DNA of 64,000 nucleotides from an uncultured Chloroflexia bacterium. Its GTDB lineage: Bacteria; Chloroflexota; Chloroflexia; QHBQ01; JAICKM01. Shown piece after piece: positions 2,491-64,000 of this stretch; positions within the stretch are counted from its first letter, which is position 1, and each line of letters opens with the position of its first letter. The notes beneath the pieces were generated by a model. It was not told the DNA's origin, ran no database searches, and saw only the letters and a list, made by a program, of their open reading frames with translations. Made by a program: the position numbers and the translations under genes. Location: contig CAWARZ010000002.1 of the NCBI GenBank assembly GCA_963784695.1, positions 1,115,513-1,179,512 on the forward strand, in the 5' to 3' direction.

Positions 2491-3105
2491 CTAGCCGGCG
2501 ACCTGCTGGTAGCGCTTCTCCACCTCGGGCCAGTTCACCACGTTCCACCAGGCGCCGATGTAGTCGGGCCGCTTATTCTGGTACTTCAGATAGTAAGCGT
2601 GCTCCCAGACGTCGAGGCCCATGATCGGCTGCTTGCCGTCCATGATCGGCGAGTCCTGGTTGGGCGTCGAGGTGATGCTGAGGTTGCCGTTTGGATCGGC
2701 GACGAGCCAGGCCCAGCCTGACCCGAAGCGGCCCGCGGCGGCGGCGCTGAACTTCTGCTTGAAGTCGTCGAAGCTGCCGAAGGCCTTGTCGATGGCCTGG
2801 CCGAGCGCGCCGCCCGGCTGGCCGCCACCGTTCGGGCTCATGATGAGCCAGAACATGCTGTGGTTGGCGTGGCCGCCGCCGTTGTTGCGCACCGTCGTGC
2901 GAATATCCTCGGGCACCTGGTCCAGATGGGCAATCAGCTGCTCAACCGGCATGGCGGCCAGCTCAGGGTGCCCCTCAACGGCCTTGTTGAGGTTGTTCAC
3001 GTAGCCGGCATGATGGCGATCGTGGTGGATCTCCATGGTGCGCACGTCGATGTGCGGCTCGAGCGCGTCGAACGAATACGGAAGAGGAGGAAGTTCATAA
3101 GCCAT
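2491..3105 (-). CDS. sodA: Fe/Mn superoxide dismutase
   Basis: Last 204 codons of track ORF 2491..3744, from ATG at 3105. [32 protein letters not shown]...[19 protein letters not shown] carries the canonical Fe/Mn-SOD metal-ligand motifs. Confidence 0.95.
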
Positions 3106-3293
3106 AGTCTTGCACCATCCTTTGTACACTGCGAGCCCCGCCATGGGCGGGCCGGGCGTGATGAATGAGAGGAACGGTGCGGCGACGGAAGGCCGCGGCG
3201 CCACTGGCCGCGTGCCACCGGCGCACGCTGCCGGACGGTCCCGCAGGACCGTCAGCGTTACCGCTGCAAGAATCAGGCCCTCGGGCGCGGCGC

Positions 3294-3842
3294 CTACTCG
3301 ACGTCGGCCCAGTAGCGCCCCTGCAAGCCCTGGCGGAGGGCTTTCTTCGCGGCGCGGGTGTGGTCGCGCATGTGCGTGCCCATGACGCGGTAGATGGCCT
3401 CGACCGTCGTCATGCCCAAGGCCGGATGCCAGGCCGGCGTGGCCAGCTGCGCGGGCGTCATCGTCTTCAGCGTGCGCAGGGTGGCGGCGCGGGCCTCGGT
3501 GAGCTCGACCCGCAGGGCCGAGGGCGGCTGCTCGGCGCGCTTCTCGACCTGGCGGCGGTTCCAGAAGTCGAGGTCGAAGGGCCGGCCGTCCTTGCCCGTG
3601 GGCACCAGCGAATCGGCGGGGCGGCCGGACTCGGCGGCGTCGAGCGCCTGCGCGATGAGCCGCGGCATGCTGACTTCCGCGCCCGCAAGGTGAGCCAGCA
3701 TCTGGCGCACGGTCCAGCCCTCTTCGCCCGTGACGAGGTCCCAACCCGGCTCGTTGTCAGCCCCCGGCAGCACGGCCATCAGGTTGGAGAGGGCGGCGTC
3801 GAGGCCCGCCCGCAGCTTGCTTGTCTTATCGATCGTGTCCAT
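3294..3842 (-). CDS. DinB-family (DinB_2/MDMPI_N-like) protein
   Basis: Track ORF 3294..3977 trimmed to ATG 3842 ([10 protein letters not shown]...). [14 protein letters not shown] near the N-terminus and [13 protein letters not shown] near the C-terminus fit the DinB-like His pattern. Overlaps the upstream gene by 17 nt. Confidence 0.6.
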
Positions 3843-4617
3843 GCGACTCCGTTCCGCCGGCCGCCGAGGCAACCAGGCCGGCCTGCGGCGCGGCCGGGCC
3901 GAACCGCAGGAGATTGGCCGCCCCGTGGCAGGGCGACAGCGTGGCGACGATGACCTGCTTGCCGGTGGCGCCGCCATCCTGCGCCAGGGCCAGCAGCCGG
4001 TCCCGCGTCTCGCGGTAGAAGCCGACCGGGATGGTCTCGATCCCGGTGGTGCGATAGGTGGTGCGGAAGATGGCCGGAGCCAGGTAGCGGTCCGGCCGGG
4101 CGGCGCTGAAGTCGCGCACGGTCTCTTCGAGATCCCAGGTGCGCGGCGCCATGATGGCCGGGCACTGGCGGGGCGCGCGGCAGTTGGGCGGGCAGACCCA
4201 GCCCGCCGCGCTGAAGAAGCGCTCGCCGCTCGCGCTCAGGTGCTCGTAGGGCAAGCCGCCGAAGGACTCGTCGAAGGGCACCGGGGTGACGGTGCCCGCG
4301 GGCAGGCGCGCGGTCAGGCTCCAGAGCAGCCACTCGGCGGCGAGATGGGGGGCGATGGGCGCGGGCACCACCTCGTCGGTGGCCGGGCGCCGGTCGAGCG
4401 CGTCTTGCAGGAAGGCCAACCAATCGGCCTGCACGATCGACAGGTGCGGGTTGGGCGCGGACTCCTGCTCCCGGCGCACGCGGCAGGCCGGGTTGTGGTC
4501 GACGACCAGGATGGCGTCATCGGCGCCGATGCGGCCGCGGGCGCGGCCCTTCTCCAGCTGCCGCACATGATGGCTGCCGTAGCAGCCGCCGCCGATGACG
4601 AGGTAGGTGATCGCCAC
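3826..4617 (-). CDS. Hypothetical protein with N-terminal Rossmann-type GxGxxG and a CPPNCx5CP cysteine motif
   Basis: Last 263 codons of track ORF 3826..5145, starting at GTG 4617, 9 nt after the TPR gene stop. VAITYLVIGGGCYGSHH... and WVCPPNCRAPRQCPAIMAPRTWD. High GC3. No family recognised. Confidence 0.55.
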   Translation of the reverse strand: MAITYLVIGGGCYGSHHVRQLEKGRARGRIGADDAILVVDHNPACRVRREQESAPNPHLSIVQADWLAFLQDALDRRPATDEVVPAPIAPHLAAEWLLWSLTARLPAGTVTPVPFDESFGGLPYEHLSASGERFFSAAGWVCPPNCRAPRQCPAIMAPRTWDLEETVRDFSAARPDRYLAPAIFRTTYRTTGIETIPVGFYRETRDRLLALAQDGGATGKQVIVATLSPCHGAANLLRFGPAAPQAGLVASAAGGTESHGHDR

Positions 4618-9484: not shown

Positions 9485-11132
9485 CTACTCGTAGGGCACC
9501 TCGACGGCGACGCGGGTGCCCGGCCCCTCCGGGCGCGGCCCGATGGTGAAGCGGCCGCCCAGCTGTTCGGCACGCTCGCGCATGCTGGTCAGCCCGAGGG
9601 TGCTGGTGTTGCGGCCGCGGCTGCCGTCGGGCAGGCCCTGGCCGTTGTCGTCGACGGTCAGGCGCACGTGGCCGTCGCTCGCGCTCAGCGTCACCCACGC
9701 CTGTGTGGCTCCGGCGTGCTTCGCCACGTTGGTCAGCGCCTCCTGCGTGATACGGTAGAGCGCTTTCTCGAGCGGGAACGACCAGCGCTGCTGGCCGTCC
9801 GCGCGTAGCTCGACCTCGATGCTGTTGCGCTCGCGGAAGAGGGCGACATGCTTGCGCAGCACGGGCACCAGCCCCTCCTCCTCCAGGTTCGCCGGACGCA
9901 GCTCGAAGATCAGCGTGCGCATCTCCTTGAGCGCCGTGTGCGACGTCTCCTGGAGGCGGCCGATCTGCACCTGCGCGGCCTCGGGGTTGCTGTCGAACAA
10001 GGCGGCGGCGGCCTCGGCATTCAGCACCATGCTGAAGAGCATCTGCGAGATCGAGTTCGTGTAGCTCGCGCGCCAGGCGGTTGCGCTCTTCGAGCACGGC
10101 GAGCTCGCGCGAGCGGTCGTAAAGCCGCGCGTTATCGAGCGCGATCGCCGCCTGATTGGCGAAGGCCATGACGGTCTGGCCATCCTCGGCGTCGTAGGCG
10201 CCGGGCCGCACGCAGTCGAGCGTGAGCGCGCCGATGACCTGCTCGCGCACGCGCAGCGGCACGCCGATCCAGGCGCGGGTCAGGTGGCCGCGCTGGTGGT
10301 CGAACGCCGGCTCGCTCACCACGTCCGTCAGCACGATCGGACTCGCCTCGGTCAGCAGCTGCCGGGTGAGCGGGTTGCTGCTCGGGTCGAAGCGCGCGCC
10401 GAGCACGGCGCCCGGGTCGGCGAAGCCGCGGCAGGCGATGATGCGCAGCACGCCCTGGATGCGCCACATGATCGTGGCCGTATCGTACGGCACGACCTCG
10501 GCGAGCTGCTCCAGGATGCGGTCCATGACGCGGTTGAGCTCCAGGGTCGAGGTGATCAACGCGGTGCTGCGGTTGAGCGCGCTGATCTCGCGCACGCGGC
10601 GCTCCAGCAGCTGCGACTGCCGGGCCAGCTGGGCGTTCTGTGCCTGCAGTTGCTCCTGGCTGTGCGTCAGCAAGTCGACCTGCTCGGCCAGGCGGCGGTT
10701 GAGCTGCAGCGAATAGAGCTTGCTGACCTGAATGATGATCCAGTGGAGCACGGTGTCGAGCTCGGCGAGCAGGCGCAGGGCGTTGTCGGCCTCCCACTGC
10801 GCCTCGCGCCAGATGATCGGCAGCACGGCCTCTTTGAGCAAGAGGTTACCCTGGATCACCTCGGAGATGTCGAAGCCCTGGCGCACGCGCGTCTCGCAGG
10901 AGCCGGTCAGGTGCTCCTCGAGCTCGCGGCGCGATCCGCGGCGGAAGAGGGCCGTCATGGCGACCAGCTCGTCGCGCAGGCAGCTCTGCAGCTCGATGAC
11001 GGGCAGGCCGGCGAAGCGCGAGTGGGGCAGGGCTGACAGCAGGCGCACCCACGCCGCCACGACCTCTTCGCGGTAGCCTTCGAGCAGCGCCGCCAGTTCG
11101 GCGGTCGCGCCGGCCTTCGGATCGGTTACCAT
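9485..11132 (-). CDS. GAF-domain sensor histidine kinase (HisKA_3/NarX-type), frameshifted as sequenced
   Basis: Starts at ATG 11132 (MVTDPKAGATAEL...). Coiled coil plus GAF in track ORF 9249..11405, up to ...EERNRLARELH. The continuation (SISQMLFS...HATPase, GLTSMRERAEQLGG) is in ORF 9485..10183. Frame switch near 10053-10062. The span is 1648 nt = 3n+1. Confidence 0.85.
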
Positions 11133-60221: not shown

Positions 60222-60767
60222 GGTCTGCGTGGCCTGCGTACGCGGGGTCTGGCCGTTCGTGCCGGGGCGGGTGCTGACGGGGGCAGCTTGCGTGTCCAGA
60301 GTTGATCTCCTTTCAGGGCGCGCGGGGTCTGTGCGGCATCGGCGCCGAACAGACGACCTTCCCAAGCCCCCTGTGGGGCACGTGCACGGTGCTAGGCGCA
60401 ATAGGGCATAGTGACGCGCCGGGCTGGGAAGTCAGTTGGCTACAAGTGTAGCAGAAAGGGTCTGTGTTGTCAAATCGTTATACCACGTAGCAGGGCAAGG
60501 TGGTTCAACCATCCGGCCGCGGCCAGGCCGGCCGCATAGCCGCGGGCGTGGGCGGGCACTGGGCCGGGCCGGCGGCGGGATCGCCGTTACATGCCGGTCC
60601 TCCGGGGCCGCCGTGGCACGGCGAACGGCGTCGGTGTTTTGTCAGAGGGCGTGTGTTATCATGTGGCCTGGGGACTTGGCGCGGCGAAGCCCGCCGAGTG
60701 GCGTGTGCCGGGATATGAACGGGCCGGGGCGGGGCAGCCGGCCCTATCGCACAGGTGACGGACCTTT

Positions 60768-61871
60768 ATGCTCGACACACCGGGTGATTGGCCCAAGGTC
60801 GGCTCGTCTCCTTGGGACCGCCTTCCGCTTCGCGGCCTCGCCTGCTGGCGGCTGCGCGGCGAGTGCGCGCCCGCATGGCGGCTCGCCATTCTCTTGCCGG
60901 CCATTCTATGCCTTAGCGCTTGTGCGACCACGTCCGCAGCCACGGGCGCCACAACTCTGGCCCAACAGAACGGGGAGGTATGGGGACTGGCCTTCACCCC
61001 GGACGGTCGAACGCTGGCAACTTGCAGCGCCGAGCCGCTCGGCAAGGATAACGCGGTCCGCCTCTGGGATACGGCCAAGCCGGGGCATCCCCCGCTCGTG
61101 GAGTGGCGATTGCCGGCGGGATGCCGGGCGGTCGCGATCTCACCGGATGGGTTTCGCGTTGCCGCAGGATCCGAGGATGGGATTGTACGGCTCTGGGATA
61201 CCCGCCATCCCGAGCAGGCACCGGCGACCCTGTCAGGCCATACCTCCTGGATCAATGCGGTTACCTTTAGCCCCGACGGGCACCTGCTCGTTTCCGGTAG
61301 TGACGACAACACGGTTCGAGTCTGGGACCTTCAGAACATCACAGGTCCTCCCAGGGTGCTCTCTGACTCCCCGAGTTCGATCTTCTCCCTTGCTTTTGGC
61401 GCGGACAGTCATACGCTAGCAGCAGGGAACCGTTATCACACGATCTATCTTTGGAATCTCACGGCCGCCGCCACGGTCACCCGCGTTCTCACCGTCACCA
61501 GTGGGGTGGTCCAGGGCTTGGCCTATAGCTCCGCGGGCAACCGGCTCGCCTCAGTCGAGCACAGCCAGATCCGAATCTGGAATCTGGGAGACCCTGGGGC
61601 CGGTTCGGCTTTACGCGTGGATCCCCGCTGGATGCTCACGACCGGCACCTTCAGCCCGGACGGACAGCTTTTCGCGGCGGCTGGGGTGGACAAAGTGGTC
61701 CGCATATGGAACCTGGCGCGCCCCTCTGACCCGCCCTGGACACTGGTGGGGCATCGCGGCCCCGTTGGTGCCTTGGCGTTCAGCCCAGATGGCCAGGTGC
61801 TTGCATCCGGCAGCTACGATGGAACGGTCCGGCTATGGCCAGCGCCAAAACCCGCTCCCCCCGCACCATAG
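60768..61871 (+). CDS. WD40 beta-propeller lipoprotein
   Basis: The lipobox LLPAILCLSAC is followed by about seven WD40 repeats (VWGLAFTPDGRTLATCS, VRLWD, INAVTFSPDGHLLVSGSDDNTVRVWD, VGALAFSPDGQVLASGSYDGTVRLW). Confidence 0.88.
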   Translation: MLDTPGDWPKVGSSPWDRLPLRGLACWRLRGECAPAWRLAILLPAILCLSACATTSAATGATTLAQQNGEVWGLAFTPDGRTLATCSAEPLGKDNAVRLWDTAKPGHPPLVEWRLPAGCRAVAISPDGFRVAAGSEDGIVRLWDTRHPEQAPATLSGHTSWINAVTFSPDGHLLVSGSDDNTVRVWDLQNITGPPRVLSDSPSSIFSLAFGADSHTLAAGNRYHTIYLWNLTAAATVTRVLTVTSGVVQGLAYSSAGNRLASVEHSQIRIWNLGDPGAGSALRVDPRWMLTTGTFSPDGQLFAAAGVDKVVRIWNLARPSDPPWTLVGHRGPVGALAFSPDGQVLASGSYDGTVRLWPAPKPAPPAP

Positions 61872-61907
61872 GTGGGGGAGCGAGCGGGAATCGGCAGGAG
61901 GTTGAAA

Positions 61908-63084
61908 GTGCGCGGATCGCCCGAACCGGCGACACGCGAGGCCGCGCTGGAGAAGGATGCGGCGGCCAGCGAAACCAACCACTTCCTGTACAGCTTCGGC
62001 GGCAGCGTGGTGGCGGAGCGGGCGACGACGAGCAGCACGAACTGGCTGGTGTACCTGCACGCCGACCATTTGGGCAGCGTGAGCCTGGTCACGAACACGA
62101 GCGCCCAGCAAGTGAGCGTGCAAGACTTCACGCCGTGGGGCAGCGTGCGGGGCAGCACCGTGCCGGCGAGCACGACCACGCTGAACTACACGGGGCAGCG
62201 GCTGGACGACACGGGGCTCTTGTACTACAATGCGCGTTACTACGACCCGGCGCTCGGGCGCTTCATCAGCCCCGACAGCATCGTGCCTGGCGCCAGCATC
62301 CGGGGTAGGCGGCGCGGCGGACACACTCGGGCAAGATCCGCAGCAGGCGTTGCGCCCGCTCACGGTGGATTTCCACGAAGGCGGCTTCCTCACGAGCATT
62401 GCTCAAGAGGACGCGTTCACGCAGCAGCACGGGTTCTGGTTCGAGCTGAGCAACGCTGATCGCGGCAAGGCGAAGAGCGCCTGGGGACCGGATGACCCGC
62501 AAGCACTCAACCGGTACGCCTACGCACTTGACAACCCGCTGCAGTACACGGATCCCACGGGGCACTACTTCCGGATCATCAAAGCCGTGATGCCGATAAT
62601 GGTGGACTTCTTCGCCAAGGCTGTTCAACAACTGAAAGACTCCTCATCTAGCGTGGACATCCTTGGGGTGCTAGCGAGTGCCGCCAGCGCTGCGCTCCTG
62701 ACCATAGAGAATCCTTTCCTACTCGTGCTGGCATCAGCCGCGGTCGGGTCGATAATCTTAGCCTTCCAGCACGCCGCAGTTAGCAGCGTCAATCAAGCCA
62801 TCGATATACTTCAGCATCTGCATGACTACCTCGACGCTGCGGACATGGCCGGATCGGTTCGCTGGGTGGATCTCTACTTCACGGACGTACGTGTGATGCG
62901 AGGTTGCCCGACGATCGAGACAGGCTATGGGTCCGAGTGTGCGGGCGGCCGAGATCCCACCGACGAAGTGACCCAAGCCACGTTATGGGTCCGTTACGAC
63001 AACGGGCAAGCGCGGGGGTTCACTGTGGACGGGTCCTTTTACAACATCTTCAAGGACTGGTGGGGCGGACCGCCGGCCGAGTAA
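61908..63084 (+). CDS. Orphan RHS C-terminal tip (RHS-associated core ending DPTGH) plus ~170-aa unrecognised C-terminal toxin-like domain, frameshifted as sequenced
   Basis: GGAGG (61897-61901) sits 6 nt before GTG 61908. WLVYLHADHLGSV...YTGQRLDDTGLLYYNARYYDPALGRFISPDSIVPG is in track ORF 61872..62459. The continuation, LRPLTVDFHEGGF...PQALNRYAYALDNPLQYTDPTGH plus the variable domain, is in ORF 62230..63084. Switch near 62296-62300. The span is 1177 nt = 3n+1. Confidence 0.8.
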
Positions 63085-63218
63085 GCGCGCACAGCGAGTT
63101 CGCCTTCCTCCCACGGGAGGCACCTGAAGTCGGCAGCAGTGGCCAGACCGAACGCCCGGAGTTCGATCCCCGGATGTCCGGTCTGGCCCAGGATCATCGA
63201 TGTCACTGGGGGTACGAG

Positions 63219-63767
63219 ATGCGCAAGTTTGTCGAATTGGCCGTGCCGCTCTCTGTTATTCTTGTGCTGGTTTCCGCTTGCGCCACGACCGCCGTCCAAC
63301 AGACCCCAGAGCCGGCCCACGTCCCGACTGATTGGCCAGATGCATTGGCCATCGCCGTGCGCGCGGTCAAGCAGATCAAAGCTTACCCAGTGCTAATGTG
63401 GGTGGAAGCGGACCCGGTCGGGGACAACTGGGTCGCCGATGCTCAACATGCGCCTCCGCTGAACACGAGGTTTGCCTTCGCTGATGGCACAGATCCCGAG
63501 CCCGGCACACTCGATATGTCGCTGGTCAGCTTCATCAACCCTCCGATAACCAGCACTATTACTGTGGAGCGTGACTACGGCAAAGAGATCGATCCAGACG
63601 TCAGTTCTACCGAGCATCGCCTACAGATGCGCGATGACTTCATGAGGGATGAAGCTCGGTCCTCAAGATGTTTTTCGCGTGACAAGCCAAGAAGGCCTGG
63701 CATACCTCGGCAGTACACGCACTTCGACCTCGTTGGCTATCATCTCCCTATCTGTAAGCGAGTTTGA
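63219..63767 (+). CDS. Lipoprotein, candidate immunity protein for the RHS-tip toxin
   Basis: Track ORF 62904..63767 trimmed to ATG 63219. MRKFVELAVPLSVILVLVSACATT is a signal peptide plus lipobox. Lower GC than the rest of the window. The last ~40 codons overlap ORF 63649..63963 and look out of frame. Confidence 0.55.
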   Translation: MRKFVELAVPLSVILVLVSACATTAVQQTPEPAHVPTDWPDALAIAVRAVKQIKAYPVLMWVEADPVGDNWVADAQHAPPLNTRFAFADGTDPEPGTLDMSLVSFINPPITSTITVERDYGKEIDPDVSSTEHRLQMRDDFMRDEARSSRCFSRDKPRRPGIPRQYTHFDLVGYHLPICKRV

Positions 63768-63963
63768 TCTCGGTCAGTTCTTCACGCCCGAGAAACGCAA
63801 GACAGCGCCGGAAATCGTGTGGGCCATCAGGTATCGGAAGGAACACCAGGATTTGCGTTTTCTCATTGATCCCTACACTGGAGAGGCCCTGTATCGAGTT
63901 ATAGAAGGGTCCGGCAACAGCCCATCCTGGCCGGCCGCAGCAACGCGCTCTCCTACCCGCTAA
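63649..63963 (+). CDS. Hypothetical protein, or the frameshifted second domain of the 63219 lipoprotein
   Basis: MKLGPQDVFRVTSQEGLAYLGS...WAIRYRKEHQDLRFLIDPYTGEALYRVIEG is a PepSY-like pattern resembling the first half of the preceding ORF. The joint span 63219..63963 is 745 nt = 3n+1. Confidence 0.45.
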   Translation: MKLGPQDVFRVTSQEGLAYLGSTRTSTSLAIISLSVSEFDLGQFFTPEKRKTAPEIVWAIRYRKEHQDLRFLIDPYTGEALYRVIEGSGNSPSWPAAATRSPTR

Positions 63964-64000
63964 TCCGTGGGAGGCAGGCGGCCGGGCCCCAGCCCCGCGT

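Follow-up and report, generated by a model that had tools for sequence, protein, structure and literature searches.

We analysed a 64,000-nucleotide stretch of DNA from an uncultured Chloroflexia bacterium (the window), close to the 3' end of which the remains of an RHS gene are followed by a variable C-terminal domain (CT) that had been proposed to be a membrane-active toxin. The CT (62566..63084) encodes 172 amino acids plus a stop codon. Like the RHS fragment and the lipoprotein genes on either side, it lies on the forward (+) strand, and the 172-residue sequence quoted in the original prediction is its exact translation. It begins directly after NRYAYALDNPLQYTDPTGH, which matches positions 55-76, at the end of the TIGR03696 Rhs_assc_core model. 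Upstream of it lie a gene for a WD40 beta-propeller lipoprotein and an RHS core that is divided between two reading frames, and downstream of it lies a gene for a putative immunity lipoprotein. We consider this region to be, very probably, a displaced orphan rhs-CT cassette that is 5'-truncated, frameshifted and currently silenced.

The match to TIGR03696 is split between two open reading frames (ORFs). Positions 2-51 of the model are matched in frame 0 by the ORF at 61872..62459 (E 1e-14), which has a native-like GC content at third codon positions (GC3) of 0.94. RHS similarity in this ORF begins at approximately 61986 (NHFLYSFGG...DHLGS...RYYDPALGRFISPDSIVPGA), and past the frameshift the ORF is an out-of-frame reading that stops at 62459. 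Positions 55-76 are matched in frame +1 within the ORF at 62230-63084. This frame +1 segment (62294..62565) holds a clade-specific insert (GVGGAADTLG..LRPLTVDFHE..GFWFELS..WGP), is conserved in 868 homologues and ends in NRYAYALDNPLQYTDPTGH. The RHS core, with its terminal DPxG[LH] motif (here DPTGH), is thus present, albeit in two frames. Only the last part of it survives, amounting to about 190 codons (61986-62565). When a 2025-amino-acid RHS protein of the same clade was compared with the whole window by tblastn, only 61986-62291 and 62347-62655 matched. Within the window, regular-expression scans revealed no YD repeats elsewhere, no YD-repeat shell (>1000 residues) was found upstream of the core, and the 38 codons 5' of the RHS similarity carry no RHS or secretion features of a delivery domain. 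The original prediction had set the CT in an RHS system, and this setting needs to be revised: RHS-like sequence in the window is confined to 61986-62655, shell and delivery domain are missing, and the CT is out of frame with the upstream core.

The frame break is due to a one-base insertion at 62293 (+/-2), which produces a +1 frame shift within the conserved RHS core. In a DNA alignment with the closest relative, locus L005 (89% identity), a single gap is observed, with GGCGCCAGC in the window aligned to GGCG-CGGC. The GC3 phase switches at approximately 62280, inside the RHS core, and those homologues spanning the junction that were fetched are read in one continuous frame. Housekeeping ORFs of 860-1157 codons are intact in the window. 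Because these long ORFs are uninterrupted, the assembly does not appear to be riddled with indels, and the frameshift at approximately 62293 is more likely to be genuine than to stem from poor assembly. Programmed frameshifting at this position was considered and rejected, as the shift is seen in no homologue. The 284-amino-acid protein that has been deposited for 62230-63084 (P0001, NCBI/ENA) begins at an ATG at 62230 that is fortuitous, lying within AAT-GCG of the core frame, and its first ~22 residues are an out-of-frame translation of the core. This ATG has no obvious ribosome-binding site, and a promoter/terminator scan was uninformative, its 'promoter' at 62203-62231 falling in conserved core coding sequence. 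The lesson for annotation is that the deposited protein is an artefact of a frameshift and a chance ATG in a truncated rhs fragment.

Orphan rhs-CT/immunity cassettes are known from enterobacteria, Salmonella and E. coli, in which an orphan can become active when it recombines with the main gene (PMC3150448, PMC3967940). Like the cassettes described by Poole et al. 2011 and Koskiniemi et al. 2014, the region in the window consists of a 5'-truncated rhs fragment with homology to the core only, a variable CT and then a small downstream gene of foreign composition, and the core that it shares with a full-length rhs would allow the two to recombine. Unlike those cassettes, it has no full-length rhs upstream within the window, it carries an extra frameshift in the core, and it belongs to a Chloroflexota-type clade whose core domain contains a long insert. 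The composition changes along the region, GC3 declining from 0.94 in the core to 0.80 in the insert, 0.70 in the CT and 0.67 in the lipoprotein gene, compared with 0.93 in housekeeping genes. The CT and the downstream lipoprotein gene are therefore of foreign composition. The DNA similarity between the window and L005 ends right after the DPTGH codons, which agrees with the placement of the CT, in the original prediction, at the position of the polymorphic payload.

The downstream ORF (63219..63767) starts 134 bp past the CT on the same strand and encodes a signal peptide with a lipobox, LVSAC (MRKFVELAVPLSVILVLVSAC...). Its last ~40 residues are apparently out of frame. After approximately 142 codons the plausible reading moves to frame +1, where 63649..63963 either continues the gene or forms an overlapping ORF of its own, and its end (...RFLIDPYTGEALYRV) is weakly PepSY-like. 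Without the apparent frame breaks, at 62293 and approximately 63645, the region would encode a short RHS core plus CT of about 400 amino acids and a lipoprotein of 248 amino acids. The similarity to Pfam PepSY PF03413 covers the last beta hairpin only (E 0.1-0.12; 13 bits, against a cut-off of 24). The original prediction had pointed to ORFs 63219..63963 as partners of the CT; rather than a membrane-embedded immunity protein, they encode a lipoprotein whose gene probably contains a second frameshift, or possibly consists of two overlapping genes. The GC3 of the lipoprotein gene (0.60-0.67) is close to that of the CT and unlike that of the host, and this shared foreign composition suggests that the two probably arrived together. 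No relatives of the lipoprotein were found in scans of genomes and metagenome contigs. We regard the product of 63219-63963 as the putative cognate immunity protein of the CT.

We next considered the CT itself. Its reading frame looks like genuine coding sequence, because it runs for 172 codons without a stop, for which P is about 0.002 at this base composition, and its GC content at the three codon positions (0.61/0.44/0.70) is coding-like. Kyte-Doolittle 19-residue averages (KD19) peak at 1.82 (residues 29-47) and 2.02 (residues 49-68). On the basis of hydropathy, hydrophobic moment and predicted helices, these peaks correspond to a hydrophobic helical hairpin, I32-F67 (62659..62766; ILGVLASAASAALLTI - ENP - FLLVLASAAVGSIILAF). 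There are no charged residues between D31 and E48 and none between E48 and H69, so that runs of 16 and 17 uncharged residues are joined by the turn E-N-P. The two apolar helices (32-47 and 51-67) have a mean Eisenberg hydrophobicity of 0.64-0.68 and a low moment of 0.13-0.27, while amphipathic helices with Eisenberg moments of 0.41 and 0.36 lie on either side (6-25 and 75-94). By these measures, the hydrophobicity and length of the apolar helices are sufficient for entry into a bilayer (KD19 1.8 and 2.0, moment <=0.27). An AlphaFold2 model from the single sequence (pLDDT 72, pTM 0.67) has strand (E) and helix (H) elements E2-5, H6-25, H32-44, H50-69, H75-94, E100-111, E134-144, E149-155 and H156-165. 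Three strands and one helix make up its C-terminal part (62863..63060), a small beta/alpha sub-domain that has no match in Pfam. A loop of low confidence (pLDDT <50, residues 113-128) is bounded by the only two cysteines of the CT, C114 and C126. Both structural elements of the original prediction, namely adjacent apolar stretches forming a helical hairpin and a small mixed alpha/beta domain after them, are therefore reproduced by the hydropathy analysis and the predicted model.

The same AlphaFold2 model sets both apolar helices in a four-helix arrangement beside the beta sheet. This raises the prospect that the CT, whether toxic or not, folds as a soluble four-helix bundle in which the apolar helices form a buried core without any membrane role. 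In addition, the profile of a CT family of similar architecture, described below, shows that such Ala/Ser-rich helices also match designed soluble coiled-coil bundles. However, two amphipathic helices would not suffice to cover the whole of two uncharged helices of 16-17 residues with a low moment, Foldseek yielded no soluble fold match against the Protein Data Bank (PDB) and BFVD, and the putative immunity protein is exported. We therefore regard a soluble bundle as very unlikely.

We searched for relatives of the CT at the levels of sequence, profile and structure. No matches were obtained in Pfam, NCBIfam, PADLOC or PHROGs, the best PDB sequences were at E 0.3 or worse, and Foldseek with the predicted model returned nothing at E <=0.001 from PDB and BFVD. 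The claim that the CT carries no known toxin motif is thus borne out, and these structure and profile searches likewise gave no confident match to a non-toxin domain. A word-indexed search of 5.8 billion proteins recovered only the deposited 284-amino-acid ORF of the CT, which is a one-member cluster, and no relative was found in a scan of GTDB genomes. An exhaustive phmmer search of 1.84 billion representatives returned the CT itself together with P0002 and P0003, both of which were rejected as spurious because they are tandem-repeat junk proteins. The CT is therefore a sequence singleton, without detectable relatives in the protein collections searched.

A singleton in a damaged gene could be a decaying relic without present function, in which 5' truncation and frameshifts in both the toxin and the immunity gene have left a CT that no longer codes for a working protein and whose lack of relatives is partly the result of drift. 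Two apparent breaks of frame (+1) fall in a stretch of 1.4 kb, among long housekeeping genes that are intact; the shell, the delivery domain and a convincing ribosome-binding site are all absent, the ATG at 62230 being fortuitous; both the CT and the lipoprotein are singletons; and L005, the closest relative, contains RHS stubs that are degraded in a similar manner. On the other hand, the CT frame is still stop-free with a coding-like GC pattern, and the CT folds in AlphaFold2 from a single sequence. Moreover, it is the conserved core ahead of the CT that carries the frameshift, such that recombination could rescue an intact CT (PMC3967940). We consider it quite unlikely that the CT is a mere relic. 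The CT is probably a toxin payload.

We also examined the RHS clade to which the core fragment belongs. Once its frame is repaired, this fragment has 868 homologues; the 120 best are all <=345 amino acids in length, and the names given for homologues point to the Chloroflexota (Kallotenue papyrolyticum, Herpetosiphonaceae). Orphan cassettes recur in this clade. At locus L006, a 2025-amino-acid RHS protein is followed by a 90-amino-acid membrane protein (9515-9787) and then by short RHS-core/CT cassettes, each with a small gene, and locus L001 has a row of four orphan cassettes. RHS cores of the clade share a conserved insert of ~60-70 amino acids between RYYDPxLGRF and NRYxY (GAASGxGGxAATLG...LRPLTVDFHEPGF...GFWFQLS...WGPxNPQAL), which generic RHS core models do not cover.

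We surveyed 69 related CTs of at least 100 amino acids from this clade and observed a transmembrane (TM)-like 19-residue stretch in the first ~90 residues of 34 of them. In P0036, a helix that directly follows DPxGH precedes a Cytotoxic/colicin E3 RNase domain (E 4e-12); in P0063, such a helix precedes an Ntox28 RNase domain (E 5e-25); and in P0016 it precedes a weak colicin E5 match. Since an RNase payload follows the helix in these proteins, the helix is not their toxic principle, and it follows that a hydrophobic hairpin alone is no indicator of a membrane toxin in this clade. A TM-like helix after DPxGH could instead be an element, built into RHS payloads, that serves for entry into membranes. 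Immunity proteins differ in location with the type of CT: the immunity protein is soluble for an RNase (a soluble, immunity-like ORF of 192 amino acids overlaps the P0063 stop codon; L007 5995-7478), a polytopic membrane protein for the recurrent hairpin family described below, and a lipoprotein for a zincin-like CT. In this clade, where the immunity protein resides therefore follows the compartment of the toxin. The zincin-like example is an orphan cassette at L006 12591-14261, in which a CT with an HELGH zincin-like motif is followed by a 137-amino-acid lipoprotein (lipobox ITSC), an instance of lipoprotein immunity to an enzyme that is presumably extracytoplasmic.

These observations bear on the main rival explanation, in which the hairpin inserts in the target membrane to serve for entry or anchoring only and the toxic activity resides in the C-terminal ~75 amino acids (residues 96-172), an enzyme or binder of some other kind that is carried across the membrane or held at its surface. 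Consistent with this, TM-like helices precede the cytoplasm-acting RNase domains of P0036 and P0063, the latter with its soluble overlapping ORF, and such helices occur in the clade whatever the payload. The window CT also possesses a separate C-terminal sub-domain in the AlphaFold2 model, and lipoprotein immunity would suit an extracytoplasmic enzyme, as at the zincin-like cassette. Yet the C-terminal part has neither a family nor a fold match and lacks histidine, ~75 residues is small for an enzyme, and an extracytoplasmic lipoprotein would give no protection against a domain acting in the cytoplasm. Furthermore, the helix of the RNase CTs stands directly after DPxGH, without the strand, amphipathic helix and hairpin of the window CT. 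We consider an entry or anchor function with the activity elsewhere to be rather unlikely.

Among the CTs of the clade we also identified a recurrent family of the same length class as the window CT (160-190 amino acids). Its members are P0072, P0087, P0061, P0113, P0107, P0033 and P0123, together with the CTs encoded at L001 11592-12677 and by the main RHS gene of L006. An 'HxVYLSxxEA' strand is followed by an amphipathic helix, an Ala/Gly hairpin and another amphipathic helix, and then by 'NGxxGV' and a beta part with four conserved cysteines. In all five of the contexts sampled (L006 3378-9787, L001 11592-13158, L002 904-2199, L003 1766-3246 and L004 1021-2530), the next gene encodes a protein of 64-105 amino acids with two or three membrane spans; the CT is borne by a full-length RHS protein in one of the five (L006, 2025 amino acids). 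The family found no match in Pfam, among PDB sequences or with Foldseek; its profile did not match Tse5 among the PDB sequences, hitting designed coiled coils only. A profile search for further members gave just 3 proteins, its word filter being dominated by apolar words. It is apparently undescribed, and we regard it as a candidate pore-forming toxin/immunity family. Its combination with a small polytopic immunity protein is the pattern seen for Tse5-CT/Tsi5 and EsxX/ExiCD (PMC9637101, PMC12744356).

The recurrent family resembles the window CT in having a hairpin at approximately residues 30-70 and cysteines in its beta part. An AlphaFold2 model of the P0072 CT (pLDDT 68, pTM 0.69) contains E2-5, H7-32, H37-47, H53-64, H67-88, E95-102, E106-113, E119-123 and H130-142, so that the element order E-H-H-H-H-E-E-E-H is common to the predicted models of the two CTs, at similar positions. 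When hydropathy profiles were correlated with that of the window CT, most family members fell in the upper half, though not exclusively, and this signal is weak. We also considered the window CT as a sequence member of the family and rejected this assignment, since hhalign and a hidden Markov model (HMM) search with shuffle controls were both negative. The resemblance, as far as the predicted models go, is architectural only.

We then compared the window CT with membrane toxins that are already known. No sequence or fold similarity to described pore-forming or depolarising toxin families was found in the family libraries, PDB or BFVD. In Pseudomonas aeruginosa, Tse5-CT is a pore former borne by an Rhs protein, and its immunity protein, Tsi5, has two TM segments (PMC9637101, PMC10684867). 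Tse5-CT is reported to insert into monolayers with a critical pressure above 30 mN/m (PMC10684867). Like Tse5-CT, the window CT follows an Rhs autoproteolysis motif, is helix-rich and hydrophobic, and lacks a predicted enzymatic motif. Unlike Tse5-CT, to which it shows no similarity in searches of PDB sequences and with Foldseek, it has an added beta/alpha sub-domain. Tse5 is moreover a complete effector of the type VI secretion system, and Tsi5 is an integral membrane protein whereas the window encodes a lipoprotein. EsxX of the monoderm S. aureus is a membrane-depolarising toxin that is paired with ExiCD (PMC12744356). The window CT shares with it a polymorphic-toxin C-terminus and small-residue-rich hydrophobic helices; EsxX acts on the cytoplasmic membrane from outside, and in both cases protection is located at the membrane, in the window through the putative lipoprotein immunity. 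Only EsxX is an LXG substrate of the type VII secretion system with a glycine-zipper motif and a polytopic membrane immunity, in a comparison made through negative family scans only.

Another point of comparison is provided by the pore-forming domains of colicins, ten-helix bundles of ~200 amino acids in which a hydrophobic helical hairpin is sheathed by amphipathic helices. The window CT has the same 'inside-out' logic, in that an uncharged hairpin is flanked by amphipathic helices. It differs from the colicin domains in having four helices and a beta sheet, and no match to them was found with Pfam or Foldseek.

These comparisons lead to a tentative model for the function of the CT. In the soluble protein, two amphipathic helices and the small beta sheet would shield the uncharged hairpin I32-F67. 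Once freed from an RHS shell at the target cell, the CT would insert the hairpin into the cytoplasmic membrane from outside, and the inserted hairpin would depolarise or permeabilise that membrane. The producer cell would be protected by the lipoprotein (63219-63963), which, anchored to the membrane outside the cytoplasm, would capture the toxin. The cassette would be activated only through recombination with a full-length rhs, with the crossover falling in the ~270 bp from the frameshift to the DPTGH codons; we infer that this core DNA, lying between the frameshift and the CT, could be used as a crossover site. Since the neighbouring lipoprotein is exported, the CT can be argued to act outside the cytoplasm. 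The lipoprotein does not, however, separate a membrane-inserting toxin from a membrane-anchored extracytoplasmic enzyme. A membrane role is supported indirectly by the predicted element order shared with the recurrent family and by the extracytoplasmic location of the putative immunity protein.

Several observations weigh against a membrane toxin held in a cassette of this kind. The window CT scores 4.1 bits against the HMM of the recurrent family, a score equalled by 177 of 1000 block shuffles, and hhalign assigns the pairing a probability of 2.4% (P 0.019). Only two of the family's four conserved cysteines are present in the window CT and none of its motifs, and the gene downstream encodes a lipoprotein whereas the family is followed by a polytopic membrane protein. 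Extracytoplasmic enzymes are the more typical partners of lipoprotein immunity, and hydrophobic helices are found in half of the clade's CTs, RNase toxins included. The AlphaFold2 model was built from a single sequence, and the remaining four models have scores of 49-62. The 62 kb upstream within the window show no similarity to RHS, and hence no full-length rhs. Finally, the cassette and the lipoprotein gene both appear to be frameshifted, and function may already be lost. With these points in the balance, we put the case that the CT acts on or at the membrane from outside at somewhat short of an even chance, which still makes it the best supported of the mechanisms considered. The proposal of a membrane-active toxin accordingly stands as regards the uncharged hairpin and its amphipathic flanks, and is weakened by the frequency of the same helices ahead of RNases in the clade. 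Taken as a whole, the first interpretation of this DNA is partly supported. The CT belongs with the known polymorphic RHS payloads, among which unrecognised payloads are common, and the copy in the window is broken.

A broader reading is that the window CT and the recurrent family are divergent members of one undescribed superfamily of small hairpin membrane toxins. The layout common to such toxins would start with a strand, continue with an uncharged hairpin that has an amphipathic helix on each side, and close with a disulfide-braced beta sheet. They would be delivered by surface RHS proteins of monoderm Chloroflexota, with the branch represented in the window having shifted from a polytopic to a lipoprotein immunity. 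The hairpin after the RHS cleavage site would be the general membrane-entry device of the clade, with or without an enzymatic payload. We judge this set of proposals, taken jointly, to be unlikely.

Should the CT prove to be a functional membrane toxin, it would add a sequence-unique and very small hairpin design, of ~170 amino acids, to the few Rhs-borne membrane toxins that have been studied, such as Tse5-CT. To our knowledge, contact-dependent antagonism in the Chloroflexota has been little explored experimentally. The patterns across the clade outweigh this single locus in significance. About half of the payloads start with hydrophobic helices; those ahead of RNases hint at a built-in membrane-entry module, and another group constitutes an undescribed family with a tiny multi-pass immunity protein.

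The spacer of 134 bp between the CT and the lipoprotein ORF contains a 48-nt palindrome (63141..63188) with 24-nt arms that are 79% complementary and have no gap between them. The lipoprotein ORFs are flanked by the two copies of a 16-nt inverted repeat (63101-63116 and 63965-63980; 94% complementary), the first of which lies within a small hairpin (CCTCCCACGGGAGG) just past the CT stop codon. The palindrome and the 16-nt repeats could be due to chance. A search of 60300-64000 against Rfam gave one chance microRNA match only and left the palindrome unmatched.

Upstream of the RHS fragment, the WD40 beta-propeller lipoprotein (60768..61871; Pfam WD40, E 1e-57) has a signal peptide with an LSAC lipobox. 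The stop codon of its gene abuts the ORF at 61872-62459 that holds the RHS fragment, and its GC3 is 0.715, compared with 0.93 for housekeeping genes. This gene may have supplied the cargo or immunity protein for a preceding cassette that has been lost, and RHS cassettes of the clade may use beta-propeller (lipo)proteins as immunity proteins or cargo. At L005, an RHS stub is followed by a WD40 lipoprotein (1577-2641), an RHS remnant (2929-3046) that is 88% identical to 61986-62103 of the window, and a further WD40 lipoprotein (3132-4217). A Kelch-like propeller is encoded after a 2569-amino-acid RHS protein at L007 2327-3715.

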